A stretch of DNA of 24,000 nt from Bacillus suaedaesalsae (GTDB lineage Bacteria > Bacillota > Bacilli > Bacillales > SA4). The stretch spans positions 30,933 through 54,932 of the forward strand of contig NZ_JAFELM010000021.1 in assembly GCF_016890225.1 (NCBI RefSeq), read 5' to 3'. Of the stretch, positions 1,881-16,993 are shown one piece after another. The notes beneath the pieces are model-generated. The model saw nothing but the letters and a program-made list of their open reading frames with translations, was not told where the DNA came from and ran no database searches. A program made the position numbers and the translations under genes. The first letter of the stretch is position 1. Every line of letters begins with the position of its first letter.

Positions 1881-3074
1881 ATGGAGGTAAGTGTTAGATT
1901 AGGTGATTCACTCTGGTATTACAGTCAATTGTTTGAGTTACCACTACCTTTAATCATGGACTCAAATCCAATTGAATTTCAGTCAAACTTACGGGTTGCG
2001 GAGACCGTTAATATTCCTGGGTATGAATTAGAATCATATGTAATTCAACAAGGAGATACGTTCTGGAAATTATCAAATGAATATAACATACCTATTGATG
2101 CAATAACATTAGTTAATCCTTCCTATAATCCTTTAAATTTACCGATAGGAGGAGAAATAGCTTTACCTAGACGGATTAAAACAAGGCTCGTAAACGGTAA
2201 AAAGGAATATCACTACGAACATCTTATTGAAGATCTTTGTAAGCTCAAGAAAACATATCCTTTTATTAAATTATTTAAGGTAGGAGAATCTGTTTTAGGT
2301 CAAGATTTGTATGAAATCAAAATAGGTAATGGGCCAAAGCGTGTACACATCAATGGTTCTTTCCATGCAAATGAATGGATAACAAGTGGGATAATCATGC
2401 ATTTTCTAAATGATTATCTACATGCTTTAGCGACAAACACACCTCTTCGTGGTTTTTATATGTATCCGTTTTATCATGAAGTTACATTATCTATCGTACC
2501 TATGGTTAATCCCGATGGTGTTGATCTTGTGTTAAAGGGACCACCAGAGTCAGAACCTTATCGATCCAATGTTTTAACTATAAATAACGGGAGTTTAGAT
2601 TTTTCAAACTGGAAAGCGAATATTCGTGGTGTAGATTTAAATAACCAATATCCTGCATATTGGGAAATTGAAAAGGAAAGAAAGGAACCGAAAGAGCCAT
2701 CTCCAAGAGATTATCCTGGTGATTTGCCTTTATCTGAACCAGAGGCAATTGCAATGGCAGGGTTGACGGAAAGAAGTGACTTTTCAAGAATACTAGCTTT
2801 TCATACTCAGGGTAAAGAAATGTACTGGGGATACATGAATTTAGAACCGCCAGAGGCAGCACGTATCGCAAGTGAGTTTGAACGAGTAAGCGGTTATAAA
2901 GCAATTCAAGTTATTGATAGTCATGCTGGATTTAGAGATTGGTATATTTATAAGTGGAAACGACCAGGTTTTACAATCGAGCTAGGAGAAGGCGTTAATC
3001 CATTACCATTATCACAATTTGAAGAGATATATGATAATAGCTTAGGAATCTTCCTTGCTAGTCTATATATGTAA
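1881..3074 (+). CDS. yqgT: LysM-domain M14 zinc carboxypeptidase-fold gamma-D-glutamyl-diamino-acid endopeptidase
   Basis: SD AAGGAGGGG at 1867-1875. Two LysM-like repeats at the N-terminus (e.g. YVIQQGDTFWKLSNEYNIPIDAITLVNP). M14 zinc motifs are present: HANEW (HxxE), VNPDGVD and AFHTQG. Position next to the yqgS-like gene supports the symbol. Confidence 0.85.
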   Translation: MEVSVRLGDSLWYYSQLFELPLPLIMDSNPIEFQSNLRVAETVNIPGYELESYVIQQGDTFWKLSNEYNIPIDAITLVNPSYNPLNLPIGGEIALPRRIKTRLVNGKKEYHYEHLIEDLCKLKKTYPFIKLFKVGESVLGQDLYEIKIGNGPKRVHINGSFHANEWITSGIIMHFLNDYLHALATNTPLRGFYMYPFYHEVTLSIVPMVNPDGVDLVLKGPPESEPYRSNVLTINNGSLDFSNWKANIRGVDLNNQYPAYWEIEKERKEPKEPSPRDYPGDLPLSEPEAIAMAGLTERSDFSRILAFHTQGKEMYWGYMNLEPPEAARIASEFERVSGYKAIQVIDSHAGFRDWYIYKWKRPGFTIELGEGVNPLPLSQFEEIYDNSLGIFLASLYM

Positions 3075-3075
3075 A

Positions 3076-3104
3076 AAGCAGTCATTTTAGTGGCTGCTTT
3101 TTTG
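3076..3104 (+). terminator. Rho-independent terminator
   Basis: AAGCAGTCA / TGGCTGCTT imperfect stem followed by a T-run, immediately after the stop at 3074. Confidence 0.65.
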
Positions 3105-3197
3105 AAACCTTTTTATTGTTAACAGTTAAATATTTGCAAAATTAGTGAAACTTTTTTGTAGTTTAAATCGTATTAATTATATAGTCATTTTTATGAG

Positions 3198-4310
3198 GTG
3201 AATTCTTTGGATCGAATTGCGATGCTATTTGTACTGGTTAGTGTTCTCCTGTGTGGCTGCAGTTCTTTCCAAGCTGAAGGAATGAAGCCTGCTAGTAGTA
3301 GAGAAAGTTTTTTGGCTAATAAGATGCAACCTGATGTGGTAAATGAACGGAATAATCTCATTGTTCCAATACAAAGTGAAAGTGTCAAATTTCAGTCGGT
3401 TGTAGATTGGTATAATTATGATCATTTGCTATATATTGTAAATGATGAGTTAGGGGCAAAAGTATTTAAACATCATATTTATACTGGAAATCATGAGTTA
3501 TTCTTCGAAATAACTGATCCTATTATTACTCTTCAGAGTAGCCCATCTAATGATCATTTTCTCATCCATACTTCTAATTCTAGTAATGAAGCGAAATTGA
3601 TTATTGTAGATGACAAGGGGGAAGTTTTGCTTGATTGGGAAGTTGAATCAGCAGAACTACAATATGTTTGGAATCCCTTTGATGAAAATAAGATTTTTAT
3701 TACAAGTTTTTTAGAGGATTGGACTTTTAAAAATTATATTCTTAATATGGAACAGAAGAAGGTTGACGAAAATAACCTTCCACATCCATTCATTCAATGG
3801 ATGAGTTCAACAACTATTGCCTATTTAAAGTGGGAAGATGCATTTACCGAAGCCCCATTATTTTTAGCAAACATTAACGGAGATGAAGAGGAAAAACTTG
3901 GTGAACAAATCTTTGCTTTTCATTCGTACAAGGACATATTCCTTACCATTTCCGCTAAGAATGAATCAATCAACTTTCAGTTTTCTAAATCTTCAACAAT
4001 GGAGAAGCTTCATGAATTTACGTTACCTGTTATTAATACATATTCTGATAACTGGTGGATTCCGAACTATGATTATGATCCAATCAAAAAGAAATTTTAT
4101 TATTTCAAACCAATTACAGAAAATAATGAAGTGCAGTCATTAGATTTAATTTCTTTCTCAATTGAAACAGGTGAAGAAGAGACAATCCTTCCAAATATGG
4201 AAGACCAGCCTATTAAAATTTCAAGTGATGGAGAAAAGTTGTTACTTGGATATCAATATAATACAATAATTGAGTTGAAGTCTAAAAATACAAGTACACT
4301 TATTAACTAA
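3198..4310 (+). CDS. yqgU: Lipoprotein of unknown function (YqgU-like by position)
   Basis: Signal peptide with lipobox VLLCGC-SS. SD GAGGTG at 3195-3200, so the true start may be the in-frame TTG at 3207. Symbol by synteny only. Confidence 0.7.
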   Translation: MNSLDRIAMLFVLVSVLLCGCSSFQAEGMKPASSRESFLANKMQPDVVNERNNLIVPIQSESVKFQSVVDWYNYDHLLYIVNDELGAKVFKHHIYTGNHELFFEITDPIITLQSSPSNDHFLIHTSNSSNEAKLIIVDDKGEVLLDWEVESAELQYVWNPFDENKIFITSFLEDWTFKNYILNMEQKKVDENNLPHPFIQWMSSTTIAYLKWEDAFTEAPLFLANINGDEEEKLGEQIFAFHSYKDIFLTISAKNESINFQFSKSSTMEKLHEFTLPVINTYSDNWWIPNYDYDPIKKKFYYFKPITENNEVQSLDLISFSIETGEEETILPNMEDQPIKISSDGEKLLLGYQYNTIIELKSKNTSTLIN

Positions 4311-4324
4311 TTTGAGGTGATTTT

Positions 4325-4639
4325 GTGGCAATCGTTGATGTAACAGTAATACCAATCGGAACAGAAACCCCAAGTGTTAGCCAATACGTTGCAGAAATTC
4401 AAGGTATCTTAAAGGATTACGAAGAACAAGGAAAAATTTCTTATCAATTAACTCCAATGAACACACTCATTGAAGGAGAATTATCGGTGTTATTTGAAGT
4501 CATTGAAGCTATTCATGAATCTCCATTTCAAAATGGAATTCAAAGGGTAGCCACAAATATTCGAATTGATGACAGACGAGATAAAAAAGTAAAAATGAAT
4601 GACAAACTAGAAAGTGTCAAGAAGAGACTAAACGAATAG
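4325..4639 (+). CDS. yqgV: UPF0045 / MTH1187-YkoF-like small protein
   Basis: GTG start preceded by SD GAGGTGA (4314-4320). N-terminus MAIVDVTVIPIGTETPSVSQYVA and size (~100 aa) are typical of the YqgV/MTH1187 family. Confidence 0.75.
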   Translation: MAIVDVTVIPIGTETPSVSQYVAEIQGILKDYEEQGKISYQLTPMNTLIEGELSVLFEVIEAIHESPFQNGIQRVATNIRIDDRRDKKVKMNDKLESVKKRLNE

Positions 4640-4644
4640 ATAAT

Positions 4645-4690
4645 AAAAAAACAGGTTAGAGGCAAAGGTGCCAAGCTAACCTGTTTTTTA
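4645..4690. terminator. Bidirectional terminator between convergent yqgV-like and yqgW-like genes
   Basis: A-run, then ACAGGTTAG ... CTAACCTGT stem, then a T-run. Confidence 0.7.
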
Positions 4691-4701
4691 TTTTATTACT
4701 A

Positions 4702-4875
4702 TTAGTGTGCTGTTGGAAATCCGTGATGGATTAACGTCATGATTGTAAACCAACCAAAAACAACAAGCGTACCTACAGCAAAAACTACTGCAAGAATATT
4801 TTTTTCACGAAGGGAACGAATTGTTCCAAATAAAGCTAGTAACGTAACGAGTGCAAAAATGATAATTAGACCCAT
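4702..4875 (-). CDS. yqgW: Small two-TM membrane protein (57 aa, YqgW/DUF2759-like). Not in the supplied ORF track.
   Basis: My minus-strand translation: MGLIIIFALVTLLALFGTIRSLREKNILAVVFAVGTLVVFGWFTIMTLIHHGFPTAH. SD AAGGGGG lies upstream of the ATG at 4875. Position matches yqgW. Confidence 0.65.
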   Translation of the reverse strand: MGLIIIFALVTLLALFGTIRSLREKNILAVVFAVGTLVVFGWFTIMTLIHHGFPTAH

Positions 4876-5076
4876 GATATAATACCCCCTTCTATTAGTT
4901 TTTACATGAGAGGTTAATACTTATCCTTTATCACAATATGTTAGTGATGTTGACCTCTAGCATATGTACCTTCAACCATTGGATTTTCCCTGTCCTTGTT
5001 ATTTTTTCATATACATGAACCATTATACAGATAAACAGGAAATTACCATAACAATCTTATTTTAATCGTTTTCTAT

Positions 5077-5541
5077 TTATTTGTCGAGTTCAAAAAAGGC
5101 AATAGAGACTTCATAGGCATTTGCTATTTTCTCAATTAATGCTTGATGGTGGACGTCTACAAAATAAGTGGTATGTTCTTGTGCAATCAAATGTTCATCA
5201 AATTGTAACAAAGCCATCTTTATATTATCTTCGGTACCTCCAATTATTTGAAACGATTTTACCATAGAATTTAATAAATACGCCTTCCCTGTATTTGTTT
5301 TTAAACCATAATCCTCGAAGGTGTCCCAATATTTTCCTTCAGATAGACCAATTATTGTATGTGTCATCTCAATTATCGAATATATACTAAGCTCTTCCTC
5401 AATATAGTGGACATCCTTTAGTGATGAAAAGATATAAAACGTTGAATAGTGTTCAACAAATGACGGAACAACCTCTAAAAAAGGCTCAACGATGTCATGA
5501 TGATCTTTGTTCGTTAATTCAATTGCATAAAATGTATCCAT
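5077..5541 (-). CDS. Hypothetical cytoplasmic protein (154 aa)
   Basis: Long ORF with SD AAAGGGG upstream (reverse complement of CCCCTTT at 5548-5554). No motif recognised. Confidence 0.6.
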   Translation of the reverse strand: MDTFYAIELTNKDHHDIVEPFLEVVPSFVEHYSTFYIFSSLKDVHYIEEELSIYSIIEMTHTIIGLSEGKYWDTFEDYGLKTNTGKAYLLNSMVKSFQIIGGTEDNIKMALLQFDEHLIAQEHTTYFVDVHHQALIEKIANAYEVSIAFFELDK

Positions 5542-5628
5542 CTCTAACCCCTTTAGTTTTTTAGAATGAGATATTCTGTTATTCTAGTGTAGAATACAAG
5601 TAGTTGAATTGTAAATGGAGGTTTTTTT

Positions 5629-6264
5629 ATGAAGTGGAGAAGGATGCCGCTTGGTCCAATAGGCACGAATGCATACATTATTTCAAATGATATCAAGGAA
5701 TGTTTAATCATTGATCCAGGTGCAGAGGCACAGAAAATTTTTGCTTATGTAAATGAGCATAGAATGCAGCCTTTAGCTATATTACTGACTCATGCTCACT
5801 ATGATCATATTGGAGCTGTGGATGAGGTGAGAGAAAAATATACTATTCCTGTATATATACATAAAAAAGAAAAAAACTGGCTGCTTGATCCAGCGTTGAA
5901 CTTATCGTTTCGAGTACCATATTTAGAACCACTTCGATTAAAAGAAGCTGAAGAGATTATTACTGGTGATGGTGAACTTTCAATTGGTGGTTTCCATTTT
6001 ACAGTATTTGAAACTCCAGGTCATTCTCCCGGAAGTGTCTCATTCTATTTCAAAGAGCATGATGTTATTTTTTCAGGAGATGCTTTATTTGAGGGAAGTA
6101 TTGGCAGAACAGACCTTCCTGGTGGAAATACCGATCAGTTACTAAGAAGTATACATGATAAACTTTTAACGCTGCCTGAAGAAACGTTAGTACTATCCGG
6201 ACATGGGTTGGAAACGACGATTCAACAAGAGATGGATACAAATCCTTTCTTAAACGGGTATTGA
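5629..6264 (+). CDS. yqgX: Metallo-beta-lactamase-fold hydrolase (glyoxalase II-like)
   Basis: SD ATGGAGG. HxHxDH motif (THAHYDHIG) plus downstream TPGHSPGS and SGD metal ligands. Confidence 0.85.
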   Translation: MKWRRMPLGPIGTNAYIISNDIKECLIIDPGAEAQKIFAYVNEHRMQPLAILLTHAHYDHIGAVDEVREKYTIPVYIHKKEKNWLLDPALNLSFRVPYLEPLRLKEAEEIITGDGELSIGGFHFTVFETPGHSPGSVSFYFKEHDVIFSGDALFEGSIGRTDLPGGNTDQLLRSIHDKLLTLPEETLVLSGHGLETTIQQEMDTNPFLNGY

Positions 6265-6270
6265 TAATAA

Positions 6271-7386
6271 ATGGCAATGGAATATATTAAACAAGCTATA
6301 CAAAAAGAGAAATCGAACTCTATATCATACTCTAGGTTTATGGAGTTAGCCTTATATCATCCAGTGCAGGGCTATTACATGAAAGATAACATTAAAATCG
6401 GAAAGTCTGGTGACTTTTATACAAGTAGTTCTGTATCCTCCGTTTTTGCTGAGATACTAGCAGATGTGTTTATTCGACTAATGGAAACTGGAGCAGTTAA
6501 GCCGAATGTTGTAGAATTCGGTTCTGGAAATGGAACGTTCGCCAAACAGGTTCTTCAATCATGGTATAAAAAGTCACCCGACACTTATATTCAAGGAAGT
6601 TACTATATCGTTGAAACAAGTCCACATCATAAACAGTTAATTCAAAAAGCAGTAGGCTCATTTCATAAAGTAACGATGATAGGAAGTTTAGAAGAACTAA
6701 AGCAGTTGCTGCCTAATTTTGATGGAATCGTATTTTCGAACGAGTTTTTTGATGCATTCCCTGTAGATATTATCCAAAAGAAAAACGGTAGGCTGTATGA
6801 AGTTAGAGTTACAGAGGGAAAGGTAAACGAGCTTGAAGAGTTGTTAGTTCCTCTTGAAAACGAGAGTATTAAGAAGTTCTTGATGGAATATCAAATTGAG
6901 GTAAATGAGGGATATCGCTATGAGATACCACTTTCAATGTGTTCTTTTATTCGAGAACTTGGTGATTGGGTCACAGAGGGAATGGTATTCACAATAGACT
7001 ATGGGTACAAAGATGAGGAATGGCTACTTCCTTTTCATAAGGATGGAAGTTTGCGTGGTTATTATAAGCACCAGCTTATTCGTAATCCACTCGAAAATGT
7101 AGGGTCAATGGATTTAACAACTCATATTCATTTGGATAAGCTTGTTAAAGCGGGTAGTACATCAGGGCTTGAACATTATGCTACTTATAGGCAAGATGAA
7201 TATCTATTGAAGACCGGAATACTTAGCTACCTGGAAGAACATCATGACACGAATCCTTTCTCGGATAAAAGTAAAAAAAACAGAGCAATCCGGTCGTTGG
7301 TGATGCAAGGTGGAATGAGCAGTAGTTTTCATGTTGTAATCCAAACGAAGAATATAAAAAAAGAGGATATAGAGAATGTAACGTAA
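6271..7386 (+). CDS. Class I SAM-dependent methyltransferase (MidA/COG1565-like)
   Basis: SAM motif I VVEFGSGNGTF. The FSNEFFDAFPV motif is typical of the DUF185/MidA family. Starts 6 nt after the yqgX-like stop. Confidence 0.7.
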   Translation: MAMEYIKQAIQKEKSNSISYSRFMELALYHPVQGYYMKDNIKIGKSGDFYTSSSVSSVFAEILADVFIRLMETGAVKPNVVEFGSGNGTFAKQVLQSWYKKSPDTYIQGSYYIVETSPHHKQLIQKAVGSFHKVTMIGSLEELKQLLPNFDGIVFSNEFFDAFPVDIIQKKNGRLYEVRVTEGKVNELEELLVPLENESIKKFLMEYQIEVNEGYRYEIPLSMCSFIRELGDWVTEGMVFTIDYGYKDEEWLLPFHKDGSLRGYYKHQLIRNPLENVGSMDLTTHIHLDKLVKAGSTSGLEHYATYRQDEYLLKTGILSYLEEHHDTNPFSDKSKKNRAIRSLVMQGGMSSSFHVVIQTKNIKKEDIENVT

Positions 7387-7420
7387 AAAAAAGCGATGGG
7401 AAGCTCCCATCGCTTTTACT
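7385..7420. terminator. Bidirectional terminator between convergent genes
   Basis: A8 run, then AAGCGATGGGA (7391-7401) / TCCCATCGCTT (7405-7415) perfect stem, then a T-run. Confidence 0.8.
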
Positions 7421-7422
7421 TT

Positions 7423-7668
7423 TTAGTGGCCACCTGTTCCTAACGGCATCATGAATGTAGTCCAGTACGTAAAACCTACAAAGAATATCGTTAAGTAAGC
7501 ACCGAAAATATAAATATACATACGTTCAGAAAGGTTTAAGTAGCCTAATAGCACAAAAAATACTGTCTGTCCGAGAAATAGTAATGAGGTTGTATACATA
7601 TCTCCTAAGAAGAACATAACTGAGAAAATACCAGTCCAAAACCCCATAACACGGTACATACGATCCAT
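7423..7668 (-). CDS. yqgY: Small multi-TM membrane protein (YqgY/DUF2626-like, 81 aa)
   Basis: Three hydrophobic helices. SD AAAGGAGGG upstream. Size and position match yqgY. Confidence 0.7.
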   Translation of the reverse strand: MDRMYRVMGFWTGIFSVMFFLGDMYTTSLLFLGQTVFFVLLGYLNLSERMYIYIFGAYLTIFFVGFTYWTTFMMPLGTGGH

Positions 7669-7794
7669 ATGTATCCCTCCTTTTTGCCCTAGTCCATCAC
7701 TTTTACTATTATAATGTACGTTTCTTGTGATGTAAATATTAGAAAAAAATACTTTATGACTTATTTTTGAAGATTATAGATTAAATATCAAAAT

Positions 7795-7821
7795 AGGTTT
7801 AAAAACTGTAAATTCGGCTAA
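7795..7821 (+). promoter_or_regulatory. Candidate SigB-type promoter upstream of the mgsR-like gene
   Basis: AGGTTTAA (7795-7802), 13-nt spacer, GGCTAA (7816-7821), compared with the remembered SigB consensus GTTTAA-N12-15-GGGTAT. B. subtilis mgsR is SigB-dependent. Confidence 0.4.
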
Positions 7822-7955
7822 TTAGGTAAGTAGATAAAGAAGTTGAAAATAATTATATACAAAAGTTATACAAAACATATACAATATAGAAAAAGATGTT
7901 ATTTTGTTCGAACTTCGCGAAATTCATCACGAAAAACAGAACGGAGGCAAAAACA

Positions 7956-8333
7956 ATGGAAAATTTACTTTTTTATACGTATCCAAGCTGTACCTCTTGC
8001 CGTAAAACAAAAGCATGGTTAAAAGCTCATAACGTGACATTCCAAGAGCGTCATTTATTCAGAGAAACCCCAACACTCGATGAGCTAAAACAAATTCTTT
8101 CTTTAACAACAGAGGGTATTGATGAAATTCTTGCGACGAGAAGCCAATCGTTTAAAAAGTTAAATATAGATGTAAATGAATTAACCGTCTCAGAAATTTT
8201 AACGCTATTAAATGAGCAGCCTAAATTACTAAGAAGGCCAATTATTACTGATGGTAATCGCCTTGTAGTGGGGTACAATAAATCAGCTTTACAAAACATG
8301 ACAAAAAAATCAATTAAAACATCTGTTTCATAA
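7956..8333 (+). CDS. mgsR: Spx/ArsC-family redox-sensing transcriptional modulator (MgsR-like)
   Basis: Start taken at the ATG after SD GGAGG (track M21). N-terminal CxxC (YPSCTSCRK). Long stretches match B. subtilis MgsR/YqgZ as I remember it (HLFRETPT, ILSLTTEGIDEILATRSQ, KLLRRPI). 125 aa. Confidence 0.85.
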   Translation: MENLLFYTYPSCTSCRKTKAWLKAHNVTFQERHLFRETPTLDELKQILSLTTEGIDEILATRSQSFKKLNIDVNELTVSEILTLLNEQPKLLRRPIITDGNRLVVGYNKSALQNMTKKSIKTSVS

Positions 8334-8456
8334 AAGTAAAGGCTCTTCTTGTAAACATTTTACTGTAACGTCATCACTATTTCGAGAGGATGCCCCGAAT
8401 TCTTATGTGTTTCTAATCTTGTTCGAAACAACATCAATCCATATAAAAGTCAAAGT

Positions 8457-8508
8457 AAAAGAGCAGCCATGGGTTATATTGTTAATATAACCATGTGACT
8501 GCTCTTTT
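8457..8508. terminator. Imperfect long hairpin between the mgsR-like gene and tRNA-Gln (likely bidirectional terminator)
   Basis: AAAAGAGCAGCCATGGGTTATATT ... AATATAACCATGTGACTGCTCTTTT, with A- and T-runs on either side. Confidence 0.6.
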
Positions 8509-8534
8509 ATTTAAAGGAACTAACTAAAATTTAG

Positions 8535-8606
8535 CTGGGCTAGCTGGATTTGAACCAACGCATGTCGCAGTCAAAGTGCGATGCCTTACCGCTTGGCTAT
8601 AGCCCA
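8535..8606 (-). tRNA. tRNA-Gln (anticodon UUG)
   Basis: Reverse complement reads TGGGCTATAGCCAAGCGGTAAGGCATCGCACTTTGACTGCGACATGCGTTGGTTCAAATCCAGCTAGCCCAG. It has a 7-bp acceptor stem, D loop AGCGGTAA, anticodon loop CUUUGAC and a GGTTCAAATCC T-arm. CCA is not encoded. Confidence 0.9.
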
Positions 8607-8741
8607 ATGATAGTTTGTTACGACATTTAATATGTGCAAAGGTTGTACAAATTATTCAATAAAAATGAAGAAACCTCATTTATTTTACCAAAATTTGATA
8701 TATAGTAGAAGAAAGAACCAAATATTTGAGGTGGAATAGTT

Positions 8742-10292
8742 TTGAAAAAACGTTTATTTAATAAATCAATATTTTTAAGTGTTACTTTTCTTAGTTTTTT
8801 ATTAATCGTACCGTTATTTATACAAAATGTGATAGAAGAAAAAAACTTAAATACAGCTGGATGGAGCAGAAGTGTTGATATTGGCGAGGCAGCAATAAAT
8901 AAATCGACCTTTCAGAGAATTAATAATGATTCTATCGATATATACTTATCAGATAGTAAATCGTCTATTAAGAAAGTGGAGATTGATCCACTAACTTTAA
9001 ACGTGATCAATGAAAAAAAAATTAAAGTACCTAGCAATCCGTATTATACATATTGGGTGTCTGCTGACGATGAAAATATCATATATTTTTCAGGTGAGAA
9101 CTTATATCGATTTGGTTCTGGAAAAAATGAAATAATTGCTGAGAAGGTTGACGAGCTTACTGTAAATAATGACACGATTATCTTTCGAAGTGGTGAAGTT
9201 GTATATACCTTGAATCCTACAGATTTTTCTAAGACCAAAGTCTTGAGTGATGACAATATTTTAAAGATTATCGTGGACCCGTATAGTCCCTCATTTATTT
9301 CATTACATCAATATGGTGAGATTGGCGGGGTGGAGTTTAACTATCATAAATGGAATGGACATAAGTATGATTCAACTTCAGTTTATGTAAAAGATTCATT
9401 TACTCAGCCTGTTACAAATATTGACTTCAAAGAATGGGATAAAAACTTATTGTTAATTTATGAAACAACGGCAATTAGTGGAGGTGCAAAAGATACCTCA
9501 CATCATTACTTAGAACTACCGTTAAATATGACAAATCATGAACCTGTCGAAACAAAACTAAAAATATATGACGAGAATAATATAGAAATAAGCTCAGTTC
9601 TAGAGATTCAATTGCAAAATTCTAAAAAAGAGGCTAGTGTGATATTCAGAGGTAATGGAGAGTTGAAAAAATCAGTGCAAAATCGAAATCTCTATCTCGC
9701 TTCATTGAATAACGGAAAATGGAGCGCCGCTCGCATAAGTACAAATTATGACCCAGTTGTAGAACCTTTACTTACAGGTGATGACTATTTAACATGGTTG
9801 ATACACGATGGGACTAATTATAAGTTAGTGGCTGCGAATACGTCACCACAAGTAATAATAGATAGTAAAAGTAGTACGATTGAGGATTGGATAAGGGCAT
9901 TAGAAGATACTTTATTCGGTTTAACGAGTGCATTAGTAATGTTATTATTCTTTATTTTATTAGTTATACCAGCTATTATCGTCATCTTTTTAGCTAAATT
10001 TTTCGATGTGAAAAAAACAAAACTTGCTGAAATCACGGCAAATGTATTATTTGCATTGTGTTCATATGCATTATTGAATAAGCTTATGAATGAAAAGTTT
10101 CTTTTAATCGCACCAGAGTATATATCTTTTCAAGGATCAATATGGGTTATCTTAGTAGCAGTGATAGGTGTCTCCTACATCTTGACAAATTTGACGAAAA
10201 ATCAGGATTGGGAATTTGAAATGAATGTGATTTATTTTGTTGGAGTCAGTATCTGGGCATTTTCGTTGTTGATTGGTCCGTATATTATTTAA
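8742..10292 (+). CDS. Membrane protein: N-terminal anchor, large extracytoplasmic beta-rich domain, C-terminal multi-TM bundle
   Basis: TTG start after SD GAGGTGG. TM at residues ~10-27 and 4-5 TM helices in the last ~130 aa. No catalytic motif recognised. Confidence 0.65.
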   Translation: MKKRLFNKSIFLSVTFLSFLLIVPLFIQNVIEEKNLNTAGWSRSVDIGEAAINKSTFQRINNDSIDIYLSDSKSSIKKVEIDPLTLNVINEKKIKVPSNPYYTYWVSADDENIIYFSGENLYRFGSGKNEIIAEKVDELTVNNDTIIFRSGEVVYTLNPTDFSKTKVLSDDNILKIIVDPYSPSFISLHQYGEIGGVEFNYHKWNGHKYDSTSVYVKDSFTQPVTNIDFKEWDKNLLLIYETTAISGGAKDTSHHYLELPLNMTNHEPVETKLKIYDENNIEISSVLEIQLQNSKKEASVIFRGNGELKKSVQNRNLYLASLNNGKWSAARISTNYDPVVEPLLTGDDYLTWLIHDGTNYKLVAANTSPQVIIDSKSSTIEDWIRALEDTLFGLTSALVMLLFFILLVIPAIIVIFLAKFFDVKKTKLAEITANVLFALCSYALLNKLMNEKFLLIAPEYISFQGSIWVILVAVIGVSYILTNLTKNQDWEFEMNVIYFVGVSIWAFSLLIGPYII

Positions 10293-10444: not shown

Positions 10445-11248
10445 ATGAAAGAAGGTGATACCTTGAGCATGGTAGAAGAGCATGCTGAGAAGTTAGTTCA
10501 AGATGCGTACGAAAGAAGAGCGTCAGATATTCATTTTATCCCCCGGAAAGATGACGGCCACATTAAGTTACGGATCGGAAATGATTTAGTAGAAAAAGAG
10601 AAGGTCCCTAAAGAATTATTCACCAAACTTATCAATCACTTTAAATTTCTTGCTTCGATGGATATCGGAGAAAAGAGAAGACCACAAACAGGCTCTTTGG
10701 TTTTAACAGTTAAGGAAAAGCTCCTTAATCTTCGTCTATCAACCTTACCCACTCCTCATGAAGAAAGTTTAGTCATTCGCGTGCTTCCACAAGAAGAATC
10801 ATTTCCACTGTCAGAGTTATCTCTATTTCCAAACTCAACAAAAACGTTATTGTCATTTATGATGCACTCTCATGGATTAATCATTTTTACCGGGCCGACC
10901 GGGTCAGGTAAAACAACCACAATGTATTCCTTGCTTCAAGCCTCCAATCAACAATTAAGCCGAAATGTTATCACATTAGAAGATCCAATTGAAAAGCATT
11001 CTGATGAACTTTTACAAGTTCAAGTTAATGAAAAAGCAGGAATTACCTACAGCACAGGATTAAAGGCAATTCTAAGACATGATCCAGACATTATTTTGGT
11101 TGGGGAGATTCGTGATGAAGAAACCGCCCAAATTGCAATCAAAGCTGCGATGACAGGACATTTAGTATTAAGTACGATGCACACAAAAGATGCAAAGGGA
11201 GCTATTTACAGACTGTTAGAATGTAATCGTTCACGAAGCATGAGATAA
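10445..11248 (+). pseudogene. comGA: comGA (competence pseudopilus secretion ATPase), 3'-truncated: homology ends near nt 11221
   Basis: Walker A GPTGSGKTT, Asp box ITLEDPIE, Walker B DPDIILVGEIRD and His box TGHLVLSTMHT are all present. After KGAIYRLLE the ORF reads CNRSRSMR and stops (267 aa against ~350-360 aa for full-length ComGA). No comGB-like ORF follows. The likely true start is the ATG at 10469 (SD AAGGTGA at 10452-10458). Confidence 0.8.
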
Positions 11249-11513: not shown

Positions 11514-11558
11514 AATTATAATAATACCCTTATGACAAATTTAATAGGAGAGAAAATT

Positions 11559-11933
11559 ATGATAGTACAAAGTGAAATAGAAACAATGCAAAAAGCCTAC
11601 GGAGAACTGTATGAAGTAGAAAACTTGTTGAGGTTATACATAAAGGAGAAAATGCAACTAACCTACGGTGTTCATTGGTTTTATGTAGCTCCTAGAAAGG
11701 AATATAAACGTCCTCCCAAAAAAGAATTTGAAAAATTACTATTCCACGAATATGAACAAGTTTACCTTAGAGCATATCCCGAAGCTTTTAAAGACCTCAA
11801 TTCGACATTCATTTATCAACTCCACTCCCTTTACCCACTCAGAAATACAATAGCTCATAATCATTATTTAGATAGGGAAGAACTTTCTGATTTATTACTT
11901 TTAAGTAGTAAACTCAAAGATGTGCTTAAATAA
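11559..11933 (+). CDS. Small Swt1-like HEPN-domain protein (putative RNase), 124 aa
   Basis: Start taken at the ATG after SD AGGAG (11546-11550). Rx4H motif LRNTIAHNH at nt 11841-11858. The N-terminal E..LR.YI....L..G..W pattern and overall all-helical layout match the remembered Swt1-type HEPN profile. Confidence 0.6.
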   Translation: MIVQSEIETMQKAYGELYEVENLLRLYIKEKMQLTYGVHWFYVAPRKEYKRPPKKEFEKLLFHEYEQVYLRAYPEAFKDLNSTFIYQLHSLYPLRNTIAHNHYLDREELSDLLLLSSKLKDVLK

Positions 11934-12120: not shown

Positions 12121-12714
12121 ATGATGAAAAACATAATAAATTCAATTTTATCAAAAAATTTAACTGCCAAAGACCTTAAATATATCGAATTAATAATCAA
12201 GGCAGATATCCTAAATACAATAAATAAAAAACATAAGAAAAACGACATAAGGATAATAACACATTTGAATACCAGTGGTAATTTTGGATGTGCGATAATG
12301 GATTTTAATGGAGAAAAACAGTTATTTATTGCTCACAGTAAAGTTCAAAAAGAAAAGGATTGGGAACTAGTAAATGCAATGTTCTCGGAACCATACTTAA
12401 AAGGTGCCATTCGCTGCTATCGGGCGGAAGAGCTAAATCAAAGATATACGACTGAATGGCTAGATGATAATCTCGATAAAGACACATTAACTGCCTATGA
12501 TCGAAACAGGGACACTGAATCTAAAATTTTAGAAGAGGTTGCATCTTATTTAGATAATCAAGGATATAATGAAAGTAAAGATGAAATTAGTTTATATCTA
12601 TACACTGTTAAAGAACCCTGTCCAAGTTGTTCAAAGGTTATTAATACATTCAAAAGTGATTTTAGAGAGATAAATTTAGAGGTTTATTATCAAAATAATT
12701 TAATAAAAAAATAG
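12121..12714 (+). CDS. Deaminase-fold (polymorphic-toxin-type nucleic acid/nucleotide deaminase-like) protein, 197 aa
   Basis: D131-T-E133 followed 32 residues later by P-C167-P-S-C170, which is the [H/C/D]xE-x(24-36)-PCxxC spacing. A preceding beta-hairpin-like NFGCAIMDFNGEKQLFIAHS and the RDTESKILEEVA helix resemble toxin-type deaminases as I remember them. No signal or trafficking domain. Confidence 0.45.
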   Translation: MMKNIINSILSKNLTAKDLKYIELIIKADILNTINKKHKKNDIRIITHLNTSGNFGCAIMDFNGEKQLFIAHSKVQKEKDWELVNAMFSEPYLKGAIRCYRAEELNQRYTTEWLDDNLDKDTLTAYDRNRDTESKILEEVASYLDNQGYNESKDEISLYLYTVKEPCPSCSKVINTFKSDFREINLEVYYQNNLIKK

Positions 12715-12725
12715 GTGGTGAAATA

Positions 12726-13136
12726 ATGAATACAAATGAGTATGATCGGGATTATATAGAAATCATTGAAATGGTACCTATTTTAATGGATGACTTTCTA
12801 TCTGGTGGAGAAACTGTTGCGGAGGCTTCAGGAATGACATTAGTTGAATTAGAGGATTTATTTATAAAAGCAATGCCCTTAAAAATAATTGCTTATATTG
12901 AGTTATTAAACTATCCAAAGTTAAGAGGTAATGCAGAATTAACAACATATTATTTAAATAGGATAATTAATGAGATTGGATCATTTGATTTTTATAATAA
13001 TTTAAATGAAGAAAATCGTAAAAGGTTTGGAAAAAGTCTTTTGGATTTATTAACCATGCCTCAAAAAAAAATAAAAATGAATGAACGAGCTATGGTAAAC
13101 TTTGCACCTATGATTAATGAATCGCTTATTACATAA
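12726..13136 (+). CDS. Immunity-like partner of the deaminase-like protein (136 aa, no recognised domain)
   Basis: Starts 11 nt after the upstream stop with SD AGGTGG. Acidic and helical. The two genes share the terminator at 13120-13148. Confidence 0.4.
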   Translation: MNTNEYDRDYIEIIEMVPILMDDFLSGGETVAEASGMTLVELEDLFIKAMPLKIIAYIELLNYPKLRGNAELTTYYLNRIINEIGSFDFYNNLNEENRKRFGKSLLDLLTMPQKKIKMNERAMVNFAPMINESLIT

Positions 13137-13148
13137 GCGATTTTTTTT
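13120..13148 (+). terminator. Rho-independent terminator overlapping the stop codon
   Basis: AATCGCTTAT (13120-13129), loop TAC, ATAAGCGATT (13133-13142): a perfect 10-bp stem followed by a T-run to 13148. Confidence 0.8.
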
Positions 13149-13313
13149 GACAATTGTAAAATCAATATGATTCCCTTTGTAGTATTAGGTCCCAAATAGG
13201 ATGAGAGTAATTTTATTTTCTACAAGAGTTCTTAATTAAAGAGATTAGACTGTATACATATTAAAAGGGGAATTACTGTCCTTAGACATTAAAACAAGAA
13301 TAGGGTGAAAGAA

Positions 13314-13568
13314 ATGACAGAAAGAAAAGTGCAAGCTACACTAACCATTTCATGCGATATAGTAATAGATGACACAATTAAGAAAAACATTGAGGAATCT
13401 TATTCAAGATCATTGAATGATAAGGAGATAGCTAATAAATTGTTATATGCTTTCTTAAATCCTAAAATCGACTTGTTTAATGAACCAGACCTAGTTGATG
13501 GACAATGGGACATGGTGTGTGAGTTTAAAGGGAGATTCAGTGATTTTAGCCTTGACATTGAAGAGTGA
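13314..13568 (+). CDS. Small acidic hypothetical protein (84 aa from ATG 13314, 87 aa from GTG 13305)
   Basis: SD AGGGTGA (13302-13308) is spaced appropriately for the ATG at 13314. Net acidic, no TM segment and no recognised motif. Confidence 0.5.
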   Translation: MTERKVQATLTISCDIVIDDTIKKNIEESYSRSLNDKEIANKLLYAFLNPKIDLFNEPDLVDGQWDMVCEFKGRFSDFSLDIEE

Positions 13569-13660
13569 AAACTCAATTTACTAAAATTAGTTTTCTAAGT
13601 AAAATTCCCTAATTTTGTGTTATGCTGAAGCATATATAAATATTAAAGGGGAATAATGAC

Positions 13661-14713
13661 TTGACTCAAATCGCTATAAAAAAATTGATTGCTCATGATA
13701 TTGACTTAGATCAAAAAGCACCGACTCCAGCAACAAATGTTATTGACTTGACAACAACATCTCAAGAAGTACTTAACTTCTTTTCAGATCATGTGAAAAC
13801 AGCTCATACAACTAAACAAATAAAAGTATGTCGTTTTTCATATGAAAATGCTCAAGTTCTTTTAGACTCAATAGATATAGCTAAAGATATCAATGACGAT
13901 GATATGTTTGTATCTGCAACAGCTGATATGACGCATAGATTATTTAACATTATGAAAAGTTCTTCTACTAAAAGTTCAGGTGCAATGATTTATCTAGTAT
14001 ACGAAGATTTATCAGATTCTTCCCTTCATTTGGGGATTATGAAAATGGATCCGAATAAAGGAATTCAATACAACAAATCCACTAATTCATTTATCGTCCA
14101 ATCAAATATGCTACCGAATGCAAAAGACCGTCTTCATAAGACTGCTTTTATCAAGTTAAAAGAAGATTTATGGGGTGAGGATGTTCATTTATTTGTGCTG
14201 GATAAGCAGCAAACCAATGAAACAGTATCGAAGTTCTTTTTAATCTCATTCTTAGAAGCAGAAGTAAAAATAAATGATACTCTTGTTACGGAATTGGTAG
14301 AGAAAAAATTAGTGGAGATGGCAAGAACTCAGAAAATCACCCAAACTCCTCTTGATTTGTTGGACTTTAGTACGAAAGTAGATCGGATGTTAACAAGTCA
14401 CAAAGAAATTGACCTTGATTACGAATTGGACAGCCTATTAAAGTCATACATTTCTAGTGATGGAGATAGAGAGTCGAAGATAGAAGAAATTAAACTTGCT
14501 TTAAAAGAAGAGAACGAAGAGGTCTATTTCGAATTTAAAGCAACTAAAAAGCCGTCATATGCAGTATATTCAGACGTTCAAAATCAAATAAATTTTAAAT
14601 TTCCATTGGCTCTAAAAGGGAAGAAGGTTTTTATTAAAACAGAAGAAGTAGATGGACAAACAGTGACGACAATTAGGCTTGAAGGAACAGATTTAGTCGA
14701 AAAATTTAAGTAA
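13661..14713 (+). CDS. NdpA/YejK-like (NA37 family) nucleoid-associated-protein homologue, 350 aa
   Basis: TTG start after SD AAAGGGGA (13646-13653). N-terminus IAIKKLIAHDIDLDQ. Central GAMIYLVYEDL...LHLGIMKMD and HKTAFIKL...LDKQQTNETVSKFFLISFLEAE parallel the remembered YejK pattern (start I.LH.LI; ...ARIDL...FLKGR.G.KV.DFF.DFLGA.E). Confidence 0.5.
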   Translation: MTQIAIKKLIAHDIDLDQKAPTPATNVIDLTTTSQEVLNFFSDHVKTAHTTKQIKVCRFSYENAQVLLDSIDIAKDINDDDMFVSATADMTHRLFNIMKSSSTKSSGAMIYLVYEDLSDSSLHLGIMKMDPNKGIQYNKSTNSFIVQSNMLPNAKDRLHKTAFIKLKEDLWGEDVHLFVLDKQQTNETVSKFFLISFLEAEVKINDTLVTELVEKKLVEMARTQKITQTPLDLLDFSTKVDRMLTSHKEIDLDYELDSLLKSYISSDGDRESKIEEIKLALKEENEEVYFEFKATKKPSYAVYSDVQNQINFKFPLALKGKKVFIKTEEVDGQTVTTIRLEGTDLVEKFK

Positions 14714-16365
14714 TGGAGAATAGTATGAAACATTTAGTTGTCACATTTCAAAACTTAGTAACTGATTTAGACCAGGTGTCAAGTCGATTGGAATGGACTG
14801 AATCACTTCACCTTGTCTCTGTAACATATAGAGACAAGGTAGGATCATTTATTCATGTAATAAAAAATCCAACATACTTAGCTGAAATTAACAACACCCA
14901 TATAAGTGTAGAAGTAAAAATTGGTACAAATATACTCTATGATCAGCAATTTATTGATAAGTATGAAATGAAGATACTTGAGGACGATCAGGTAGCTGAA
15001 GTTACCATTAGCTTCAACAAAGAAATTAGCTTACAGCTACATTCAAATGTAACGTTATTCTTTAACATAGACTCATTTCTCTCAGAGTGGAGTTTCAATA
15101 ATTTAAGTATGGTTACATTCTTTAAGAATATAGATAAAGAAAAACAGGTATTCATTTACTTGCCTACTGACGAGAAAATAGAGAATCCCTTTTTGAAAGT
15201 AATCCCTTTTAAGGATTACAATGGATTTGAACCGAATGCCTTAGAACAAAATCAAAAGGATTTAATTGATGATAGTATAAAAATAAGGGAGGAACATACA
15301 CGTATATCGACAAGTATGCCTGTTCCTTATTATTTTTATTTTGAATCAAGCAAATTAAAATTCCCTGAAAACCTTTACTTATCTTTTCAGCAAAGTCTAT
15401 TTTTCTTATCATTACTCCATATAAGTAACAAATATGAAAATGAAGTTTTTATTGTTAGGGGTCAAAAAAGTGTGGAGTATAATTGGCAAAAAGATTTTAA
15501 ACCGAACTTTGCAGATATTTTATATAGTATTTTCAATTTCTGTTATGGTAAGGAACAGGCACAAGATAAACTGGAAATCGGTAGGAATATACTAACTACT
15601 TATCATCTTGATGAATCAATAGATAAATTAGACGCTCAGTTAGATAAAATTGAGAAAACAATTAATCGACATTTCTCACTTTATGTGAATGATAAAATAA
15701 AGAAGTTTTTAGATGAATCAAAAAAGGCAATAGATGAAGCTCATAAATATGCAAAAGAAACCAGAGAAGCCGCAGATAAGGTAGTCTCTAATATTAACAC
15801 TTCGATCATTGGATTAATTACAGCTGTTTTCTCAGGTATTGTTATTATGGCTAGAGGAAACAAGTGGTTTTTAATCGTAGCACTCTTACTACATATGTTT
15901 TATTTTGGATTAACATATTTTCTTAACCGTTATTTCGCTAAAAAGAAGCAAAAAGAAATTCTTGATGTGTATGACCAATCTATTGGATATATATCCAATG
16001 TCACTGAAGAAGAAAAGGTAGAAATAAAACAAATGTATATTGATTCTGCTTCAGAGAGTATCGATAACAATTTGAAAATCTATAAATGGCTCTCAAATTC
16101 ATTGGTTGTCTTAATGCTATTGCTAAGTATTGTTGTTTTCTTTTTTATGCCTAATTTGGATAGTGCTAAAAAACAATCAGAGCAACAAAATATAAAACAA
16201 GAACAGATAAATAAAGGTACTTCACCGAGTAATAATGAAGACAAAGTTCAAAATACCTCAGAAAAATCGAAACAGTCACAGGACCAAGCTGAAAAAAATA
16301 ACTCTAAGGTGAATCCCACTAATAGTAATACAGACTCGAACAAAAACTTGGATAATAAAAAGTAG
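14713..16365 (+). CDS. Large coiled-coil / 3-TM membrane protein with a Q/N/K/S-rich C-terminal tail, translationally coupled to the NdpA-like gene
   Basis: The ATG overlaps the upstream TAA (TAATG at 14711-14715). An alternative in-frame ATG lies at 14725 after GGAGA. About 370 aa are soluble with no recognised domain. A coiled-coil segment (DKLDAQLDKIEKTI...EAHKYAKETREAADKV) follows, then TM helices IIGLITAVFSGIVIMA, WFLIVALLLHMFYFGLTYFL and LVVLMLLLSIVVFFFM, then a ~75-aa low-complexity tail. Confidence 0.7.
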   Translation: MENSMKHLVVTFQNLVTDLDQVSSRLEWTESLHLVSVTYRDKVGSFIHVIKNPTYLAEINNTHISVEVKIGTNILYDQQFIDKYEMKILEDDQVAEVTISFNKEISLQLHSNVTLFFNIDSFLSEWSFNNLSMVTFFKNIDKEKQVFIYLPTDEKIENPFLKVIPFKDYNGFEPNALEQNQKDLIDDSIKIREEHTRISTSMPVPYYFYFESSKLKFPENLYLSFQQSLFFLSLLHISNKYENEVFIVRGQKSVEYNWQKDFKPNFADILYSIFNFCYGKEQAQDKLEIGRNILTTYHLDESIDKLDAQLDKIEKTINRHFSLYVNDKIKKFLDESKKAIDEAHKYAKETREAADKVVSNINTSIIGLITAVFSGIVIMARGNKWFLIVALLLHMFYFGLTYFLNRYFAKKKQKEILDVYDQSIGYISNVTEEEKVEIKQMYIDSASESIDNNLKIYKWLSNSLVVLMLLLSIVVFFFMPNLDSAKKQSEQQNIKQEQINKGTSPSNNEDKVQNTSEKSKQSQDQAEKNNSKVNPTNSNTDSNKNLDNKK

Positions 16366-16405
16366 GTCTATAATATGTTGTTTAACATTATAATCTACTA
16401 CAACT

Positions 16406-16453
16406 AAAAACCAGAAAGGAATCATTCATTACTAATGATTCCTTTCTGGTTTT
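16406..16453. terminator. Strong bidirectional terminator shared by convergent genes
   Basis: AAACCAGAAAGGAATCATT (16408-16426), loop CATTACT, AATGATTCCTTTCTGGTTT (16434-16452): a perfect 19-bp stem flanked by A- and T-runs. Confidence 0.9.
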
Positions 16454-16480: not shown

Positions 16481-16993
16481 TTATTTCAAAATGGAATTGT
16501 ATAGTGATCCCTTCCTCTTAGACCATTCGTAAATATAGTTTTTTAATTCCTCGACTCTTTGATCAGCATTAATCTTTCCATTTCTCTTACCAACTAATGA
16601 ATCCATTTTTAAAAACTCATGTATTAAATTTTCAGAATCGGGATACTCATAGCTATCGTTATATCCTGGATTAAGCCAATGCAAGTAAATAAAGTAATTG
16701 TTCTTTTGAAAATATCTTAGGGTGTTTAATGCATCTTTCTTAAATTGTATAGAACATAAAACGATTTCTGGAAGGTAGTCAACTTGTATTATCTCTTCTA
16801 CTGTTTTTCCCCGTTCTTGTGGAGAACCATTGATTAAAAATACGTCAGTGAACTCTCCATTAGGACCTACTTCTAATTTTCTTTCTGACCTTTGAGCTGT
16901 TCTTATATTCTTATCGTTAAAAAGTTTCTTCCATGTTTCCGACTTCCCAGAATTTCGATGACCAATTACTGCAATAAGTAATTTTTTTGTCAT
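16481..16993 (-). CDS. Small P-loop NTPase (170 aa), family not recognised
   Basis: SD GGAGG upstream. Walker A GHRNSGKS near the N-terminus (nt 16943-16966). A hydrophobic strand VFLINGSPQE is a possible Walker B. Confidence 0.6.
   Translation of the reverse strand: MTKKLLIAVIGHRNSGKSETWKKLFNDKNIRTAQRSERKLEVGPNGEFTDVFLINGSPQERGKTVEEIIQVDYLPEIVLCSIQFKKDALNTLRYFQKNNYFIYLHWLNPGYNDSYEYPDSENLIHEFLKMDSLVGKRNGKINADQRVEELKNYIYEWSKRKGSLYNSILK

Follow-up and report, generated by a model that had tools for sequence, protein, structure and literature searches.

The described systems closest to the gene cassette analysed here are those named PANGU (bioRxiv 10.64898/2026.04.06.716658, April 2026), in which operons of a YejK-like nucleoid-associated protein (NAP) and an effector protect Escherichia coli. 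They were defined as bicistronic, with genes <40 bp apart and located within defence islands, and dozens of types of NAP operon were reported, mainly from Bacillota and Pseudomonadota (10.64898/2026.04.06.716658). In PANGU type II the NAP, Pag2A, is accompanied by Pag2B, a protein that joins an acidic 'DNA-mimic' domain at its N-terminus to a transmembrane (TM) domain at its C-terminus; both genes are required, neither is toxic alone and the defence is abortive (10.64898/2026.04.06.716658). When T4 infects, Pag2A moves off the nucleoid, and its binding to the acidic domain has a dissociation constant (KD) of 19 nM; type I likewise relies on a NAP that, once free of the nucleoid, attaches to an acidic domain of its effector (10.64898/2026.04.06.716658). 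Another validated anti-phage system is DefensePredictor DS-1 of E. coli (WP_000355468.1 and WP_000150292.1; Science 2026, PMC13092281). It consists of a 391-aa NAP followed after a 2-nt gap by a 404-aa membrane protein, the sequence of which begins with a soluble domain and continues with a helical region, a TM hairpin, ~65 aa of loop and the third TM. We compared with these systems a cassette found in a stretch of 24,000 nucleotides from Bacillus suaedaesalsae (assembly GCF_016890225.1, contig NZ_JAFELM010000021.1, positions 30,933 to 54,932 of the forward strand; the whole stretch is called the window and numbered from its first letter). On its forward strand lie three co-oriented open reading frames (ORFs) at 13305/13314-13568, 13661-14713 and 14713/14725-16365, encoding in this order a small acidic protein, a YejK/NdpA-like NAP and a three-TM membrane protein. 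The last two have entries of B. suaedaesalsae at NCBI with 100% identity. Judged by their synteny and conservation in at least 13 other genomes, all three are genuine genes. By analogy with the E. coli systems we lean slightly towards reading the cassette as an abortive-infection defence module in which the NAP would be the sensor and the membrane protein the effector, working as PANGU type II does. The features of the cassette are the following:

13314 to 13568, forward strand: gene of the small acidic protein, 84 aa, isoelectric point (pI) 4.4; homologues align from the ATG at 13314
13618 to 13626, forward strand: extended -10 promoter-like element TGTTATGCT, a candidate from conservation, for the bicistron of NAP and membrane protein
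13661 to 14713, forward strand: YejK/NdpA-like NAP, 350 aa, TTG start, putative sensor; Pfam NA37 and YejK fold
14715 to 14718, forward strand: GGAG, the Shine-Dalgarno sequence for the membrane protein, next to the stop codon of the NAP gene; read from the sequence and related loci
14725 to 16365, forward strand: membrane protein, 546 aa, putative effector; start set by homologue alignment
16407 to 16453, either strand: bidirectional intrinsic terminator with a 20-bp stem and a 7-nt loop, from sequence and folding

The 350-aa product of the second gene matched the Pfam family NA37 (PF04245) over residues 10-296 with E=4.7e-16 and 59.5 bits (cutoff 24.6). Its AlphaFold2 (AF2) model, with a predicted local distance difference test score (pLDDT) of 81.8, aligned over its full length with E. 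coli YejK (9be2) in Foldseek (E=6e-10, probability 1.00, 362 alignment columns). This was the sole significant PDB match of the fold search, and the two proteins are ~16% identical over the structural alignment. Both by sequence and by modelled fold, then, the NAP belongs to NA37/YejK. Proteins of the YejK type bind DNA non-specifically. The start codon of the gene is TTG in 9 of 10 aligned loci and GTG in the tenth, at a protein identity of 35-87%, and the retention of TTG suggests selection for weak translation initiation of the putative sensor. Searches of the PDB by sequence, using the family profiles of all three proteins, gave no match.

Homologues of the membrane protein all align from its second methionine (14725), in agreement with the NCBI product of 546 aa, and the cytoplasmic part comprises ~355 aa. 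Its predicted layout is as follows:

14725 to 15294 (residues 1-190), forward strand: acidic alpha/beta N-domain, AF2 pLDDT about 90
residues 191-358, forward strand: conserved middle region and long helices, from the AF2 model and the alignment
15799 to 15930 (residues 359-402), forward strand: TM hairpin, from TM analysis
between the hairpin and the third TM, forward strand: cytoplasmic loop of 56 aa, Lys-rich just after TM2, from TM and charge analysis
16099 to 16170 (residues 459-482), forward strand: third TM, from TM analysis
16171 to 16362, forward strand: disordered polar tail of 64 aa, from sequence and TM analysis

No family of Pfam, PADLOC, NCBIfam or PHROG was found for this protein, only sub-threshold matches to TM or coiled-coil entries (phrog_276, E=2.4e-5; DUF2951, E=0.006), and no fold match in the PDB or BFVD. 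Also, the Pfam matches of the three proteins include no SLATT family even at E up to 1. The pI of the N-domain is 4.8; among 118 family members 97% carry a net negative charge there, the mean being -9.6 over 190 residues. The C-terminal tail is highly variable among homologues. In the homologue of Bacillus sp. ISL-7 (P0021) its place is taken, at residues ~485-630, by two bacterial surface immunoglobulin (Ig)-like domains (PF16403, E=5e-34), which implies that the C-terminus is extracellular; there it may have a sensing or anchoring role.

In a word-index search the membrane protein had 8 relatives and the NAP 9, and a second such search with the family profile added no members. By exhaustive profile search, 159 representative clusters of the membrane protein were obtained at E<=1e-3, nearly all of 450-550 aa with the same layout, those with a name coming from Bacillota. 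Two broad family alignments were too diverse for locus scanning. The loci compared are those of 14 closer genomes (the B. suaedaesalsae window, Robertmurraya, B. cereus, Bacillus spp., Mesobacillus, Cohnella, Brevibacillus and Paenibacillus) and of five further members, four of them much more distant (Clostridium cochlearium, a metagenome-assembled genome of Bacillota, metagenomes). The 19 informative genomes cover Bacillaceae, Paenibacillaceae and Clostridia at identities of about 15-70%, and in every one of them the gene immediately before that of the membrane protein, in the same orientation, encodes the NAP; one very divergent NAP was recognised only by a custom profile, in full length and at E about 1e-6. 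The pairwise-identity matrices of NAP and membrane protein are correlated with r=0.94, and those of the small protein, which is 80-90 aa long across loci, follow either of them with r=0.82-0.83. This reveals that the genes of the cassette travel and diverge as one module. The cassette is rare and patchy, with 13 loci among 185,579 species genomes, and a tblastn search with the membrane protein against 72,556 plasmids and 50,697 phage records gave no match.

The copies of the cassette are embedded in defence islands. The neighbours recognised at the individual loci (numbered L001 onwards) are these:

B. cereus (L002): Wadjet (JetC, E=0) on one side and Septu (PtuA, E=9e-286; PtuB, E=5e-97) on the other
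Bacillus sp. DJP31 (L003): a CBASS-type E1-E2 protein, a JAB protein, an SLFN/AlbA protein, a complete type I restriction-modification (RM) system, NERD and TniQ
Mesobacillus (L006): Hachiman HamA/HamB and a type IIG RM enzyme
Paenibacillus marchantiophytorum (L013): a complete Kiwa system and a type I RM system
C. cochlearium (L018): the cassette follows immediately after a prophage holin/lysin module
other loci: HsdM/HsdS; HsdR with IS1595 and TniQ; NERD; MNT/HEPN; PemK with a GajB-like helicase

In B. cereus the Wadjet and Septu regions (2569-8148 and 12344-15402 of that locus) sandwich the cassette, and in P. marchantiophytorum KwaA and KwaB (E=4e-74 and 1e-111, respectively) occupy 8245-9815, ~1 kb downstream of it.

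When the cassette is set against the described systems, PANGU type II is the nearest in plan. It shares the YejK-like NAP gene next to and co-oriented with its partner (the gap in the cassette is 11 nt), an effector in which an acidic region in the cytoplasm precedes C-terminal TMs, although the acidity in the cassette is only moderate, and the link to known defence systems. The cassette differs from it by a larger effector (546 aa) with a three-TM layout and an extracellular tail, and, in most loci, by a conserved third gene, that of the 84-aa acidic protein, PANGU being defined by two genes. PANGU type I (Pag1A with the GRel toxSAS Pag1B) has a YejK-like sensor as well, but its effector is a soluble alarmone synthetase and not a membrane protein. 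DS-1 has the same order of NAP and membrane protein and an effector whose TM layout is co-linear with ours. In contrast, the two NAPs have only the Pfam family NA37 in common, that of DS-1 carries an N-terminal zinc-ribbon extension and no small acidic gene is present in the DS-1 transcription unit. Sequence homology between the membrane protein and the DS-1 effector (DS-1B) was considered and rejected, as no hhalign, hmmsearch or phmmer score was significant. Kiwa (PMC11785009), with the membrane sensor KwaA and the non-specific DNA binder KwaB, resembles the cassette in combining a membrane protein with a putative DNA-binding protein within defence islands; it differs in the fold of KwaB (DUF4868), in the small 4-TM KwaA of roughly 200 aa and in its reversed gene order. 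Homology to Kiwa was likewise rejected, the three proteins being without a KwaA or KwaB match in PADLOC and Pfam and the fold search returning YejK only. The chromosomal YejK/NdpA of E. coli (9be2) and Pnd of pCAR1 have the fold and Pfam family of the cassette NAP, but they are stand-alone genes, whereas the cassette NAP is always paired with the membrane protein and placed in an island. Mobile elements are known to carry such NdpA-type NAPs, which act in plasmid-host transcriptional networks (PMC6606824). Since the NAP and membrane-effector kind has already been described and validated (PANGU, DS-1), the cassette is not categorically new. What is most likely new is a Gram-positive family, an effector without detectable sequence relation to DS-1B and a third conserved gene.

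The expression signals place the core of the cassette in the last two genes. A first-pass annotation, made from the letters of the window, had described three co-oriented genes closing at one very strong terminator with a 19-bp stem, and had taken the TAATG at 14713 for an overlap of stop and start that would link the stoichiometry of NAP and membrane protein. The orientation and the terminator hold: the stem at 16407-16453 is perfect over 20 bp rather than 19, with a 7-nt loop and T/A runs on both sides, the 104-nt stretch holding it folds at -35.1 kcal/mol (z=-8.8), and it is common to the membrane-protein gene and to a convergent gene at 16481-16993 on the reverse strand. The TAATG is present in the sequence, but the alignment of the homologues and the NCBI call point to the ATG at 14725, 11 nt after the NAP stop, as the true start. 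In most related loci the gap from stop to start is 11-14 nt with an adjoining GGAG, GGGAG or GGGG (range 6-23 nt); some loci have a short overlap of the two genes, and two distant ones have gaps of 42 and 104 nt. With this close spacing and a Shine-Dalgarno sequence at the stop codon, the expression of the two genes is still likely to be linked, by spacing and not by overlap. A single operon of three genes is doubtful, for the following reasons. A terminator-like hairpin with a T-run follows the small gene in 7 of 11 related loci scanned (the B. suaedaesalsae window is without one). In 11 of 15 loci the NAP start is preceded, at a distance of 39-53 nt, by an extended -10 element TGnTAnnnT, which stands out as conserved columns when the intergenic regions are aligned. 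By its conservation this element is a candidate promoter of the bicistron. Hence the small gene probably forms a transcription unit of its own, and the core operon would be the NAP-membrane pair. It may be noted that the RNA of the spacer at 13566-13665 (z=-5) can pair the Shine-Dalgarno GGGG of the NAP gene (13648-13651) with CCCU at 13607-13610. No consensus RNA structure was found across loci for the spacer between the small and the NAP genes, and this sequestering fold is not conserved; it may be local or a matter of chance.

The small gene was also counted as a member of the cassette in the first-pass annotation, which stands in part: 13 of the 17 informative loci have it immediately before the NAP gene, but it is not universal and, as said, probably transcribed on its own. 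Four cassettes that are otherwise intact (L006, L018, L020 and L022) are without it. The NAP-membrane pair, which as a rule has its own conserved promoter-like element, occurs alone in these loci, and the small protein is probably an accessory of the Bacillaceae/Paenibacillaceae branch. Its homologues align from the methionine at 13314, with the motifs LNPK and GxWDxVxEFxGR conserved, so that the ATG at 13314 (84 aa) is most likely the start and the GTG at 13305 a less likely one. The protein gave no match in Pfam, PADLOC, NCBIfam, PHROG or the PDB. A paralogous relation to a part of the membrane protein was tried and rejected (hhalign probability 7%). In Cohnella sp. 56 (L016) a fragment of an IS91-type transposase zinc-binding region, at 3406-3942 of that locus, has come to lie between the small and the NAP genes, with the NAP-membrane pair intact.

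Several other genes of the window adjoin the cassette. The convergent gene beyond the shared terminator encodes a protein of 170 aa that carries a P-loop (GHRNSGKS) and matched no family; Bacillus sp. DJP31 (L003), and no other locus, has an 84%-identical copy in the corresponding place, and as judged from these sequences the gene travels with the cassette in the B. suaedaesalsae/DJP31 sub-lineage only. Directly upstream of the cassette, 12121-13143 holds a gene for a deaminase toxin of the BURPS668_1122 family (PF14424, E=2.5e-23), followed 11 nt on by one for a 136-aa protein without a family, and the two close at their own terminator (13119-13143). The 136-aa product may be an immunity protein, and they look like a separate toxin/immunity pair. 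A 133-aa protein encoded at 11532-11933, with a sub-threshold match to HEPN_Swt1 (E=4e-4) and to the PADLOC candidate PDC-M34B (E=5e-5), may be a further small defence or toxin gene of the same island. At 10445-11248 a comGA-like gene (T2SSE, E=2e-87) stops at about residue 253 of 352, and neither its 3' end nor comGB-G was found downstream in the window (to 24000). Accordingly, at least 12.7 kb of low-GC island DNA has broken into the competence operon or taken its place. Further upstream lie a 516-aa ORF without a family (8742-10292) and, before it, a tRNA-Gln (UUG) gene at 8534-8606 on the reverse strand. Related cassettes also lie at competence genes, namely upstream of comGA (L001), upstream of comEC (L007) and behind a split comEC fragment (L012).

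The mechanism that we favour for the cassette, abortive defence in the manner of PANGU type II, would run as follows. In the uninfected cell the YejK-like protein would be held on chromosomal DNA. By analogy with the E. coli systems, a phage that degrades or remodels the nucleoid would free it, and the free NAP would bind the co-translated membrane protein at its acidic N-terminal part in the cytoplasm. By this binding the TM hairpin and the third helix would be switched to a state that damages the membrane, and the infected cell would stop growing or die before phage release. The separately transcribed small acidic protein would most likely act as a buffer or decoy, taking up free NAP and determining the threshold of activation. 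The first-pass annotation had likewise suggested a DNA-binding sensor with a membrane effector, an idea for which PANGU type II and DS-1 now offer a precedent in E. coli. Its other expectations fared well: the 350-aa protein is of the NdpA/YejK kind, the large protein has the layout of an unassignable domain, a TM hairpin, a third TM and a disordered tail (in 546 aa), the two genes co-occur across genomes, and cassettes do lie beside known defence genes, those of Wadjet, Septu, Hachiman, Kiwa, RM and CBASS-like systems. Its description of the system as undescribed has been overtaken, as the kind now has the names PANGU and DS-1.

A number of points weigh against this reading. What the analysis shows are the anatomy of the cassette, its gene pairing, the joint inheritance and the island setting; the steps of sensing and killing are carried over from the E. 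coli systems by analogy, and the likeness to Pag2B is drawn from the published description of that protein, whose activation was itself left open (10.64898/2026.04.06.716658). With -12 over 190 residues the N-domain carries little charge for a 'DNA mimic', and no more than is ordinary for a cytosolic protein, and the AF2 model of the membrane protein is unreliable past about residue 190, where the pLDDT is low. Against DS-1B the membrane protein reached an hhalign probability of 0.5% with 8 sequences and 3.7% with a profile of 118, a full-sequence hmmsearch E of 0.18 and a best phmmer E of 0.012 in a set of 170 sequences, which is not significant. At four loci (L008, L009, L011 and L020) no defence neighbour could be recognised. 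Also, the small protein is absent from four loci, and its role is one that we infer purely by analogy.

Of the other explanations, a reversal of roles as in Kiwa seems unlikely to us but is the most probable. The membrane protein would here sense, with its extracellular tail and TM region, a perturbation of the envelope at phage attachment or DNA entry and, what we hold to be just as unlikely, the YejK-like protein, released or positioned, would coat the phage DNA and block its replication and transcription, so that the cell survives. The variable C-terminal tail outside the cell, with its Ig-like domains in P0021, the location of several loci at the DNA-uptake genes comG and comEC and the established non-specific DNA binding of YejK-type proteins would all suit such a scheme, and Kiwa itself, with KwaA as membrane sensor and KwaB as non-specific DNA binder, is its precedent (PMC11785009). 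Yet the cassette NAP has the YejK fold and not that of KwaB (DUF4868), the membrane protein is unlike the 4-TM KwaA of roughly 200 aa, and in the sole studied system of NAP and TM protein it is the NAP that begins on the nucleoid and relocates on infection. A complete Kiwa system moreover adjoins the cassette in P. marchantiophytorum (L013), so the two are not redundant copies. Slightly less probable is a cassette with three true components, in which the small protein and the acidic N-domain would compete for the DNA-binding surface of the NAP, the effector fold would be one without a known relative, and the variable extracellular tail would add an input from the envelope, thereby integrating nucleoid and surface events. 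If this were so, a built-in decoy or 'safety catch' would set the firing threshold.

We give about the same low credence to a housekeeping function on a mobile element, where an NdpA-like NAP, comparable with Pnd of pCAR1, would tune the transcription or topology of island and host. The corresponding part for its partner, that the membrane protein tethers DNA for maintenance, segregation or DNA uptake, appears no less doubtful. Mobile elements do carry NdpA-type NAPs (PMC6606824), the cassette resides in horizontally acquired islands with TniQ, insertion sequence (IS) elements and prophage ends close by, and some loci adjoin competence genes. Against this, the known element-borne NAPs have neither a membrane protein as strict partner nor such tight co-evolution with one (r=0.94 in the cassette), no copy was found on the 72,556 plasmids or in the 50,697 phage records, and the cassette is not tied to one type of element, different defence systems flanking the copy of each genome. 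The least probable of the alternatives is an addiction module akin to toxin-antitoxin systems, with the membrane protein as a constitutively toxic pore-former that is restrained by the NAP, by the small acidic protein or by both as a labile antitoxin, and with stabilisation of the island as the main function. The small acidic gene upstream with its own transcription signals is arranged like an antitoxin gene; toxin-like genes lie nearby in the window (the deaminase toxin with its partner and the HEPN-like protein), as do PemK and MNT/HEPN genes near other copies. But the small gene is missing from four loci that are otherwise intact and is split off by the IS fragment in Cohnella sp. 56 (L016), and the NAP and TM systems of E. 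coli are reported to be non-toxic with either gene alone (10.64898/2026.04.06.716658). A toxin-antitoxin function and abortive-infection defence would overlap in any case.

Sensing of genome damage through NAPs has so far been demonstrated only in E. coli, and with operons derived from Gram-negative bacteria. The present family offers a compact Gram-positive version, with a conserved promoter-like element, a TTG start for the sensor and a Shine-Dalgarno coupling to the effector, of which the N-domain is uncharacterised yet confidently predicted. Should the cassette fail to defend, this would set a limit on the generality of the PANGU principle. The third conserved gene could show how NAP systems stay silent, and the cassette as a whole is a concrete candidate for work in B. 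subtilis, in which activation of the effector and release from the nucleoid are easily imaged.

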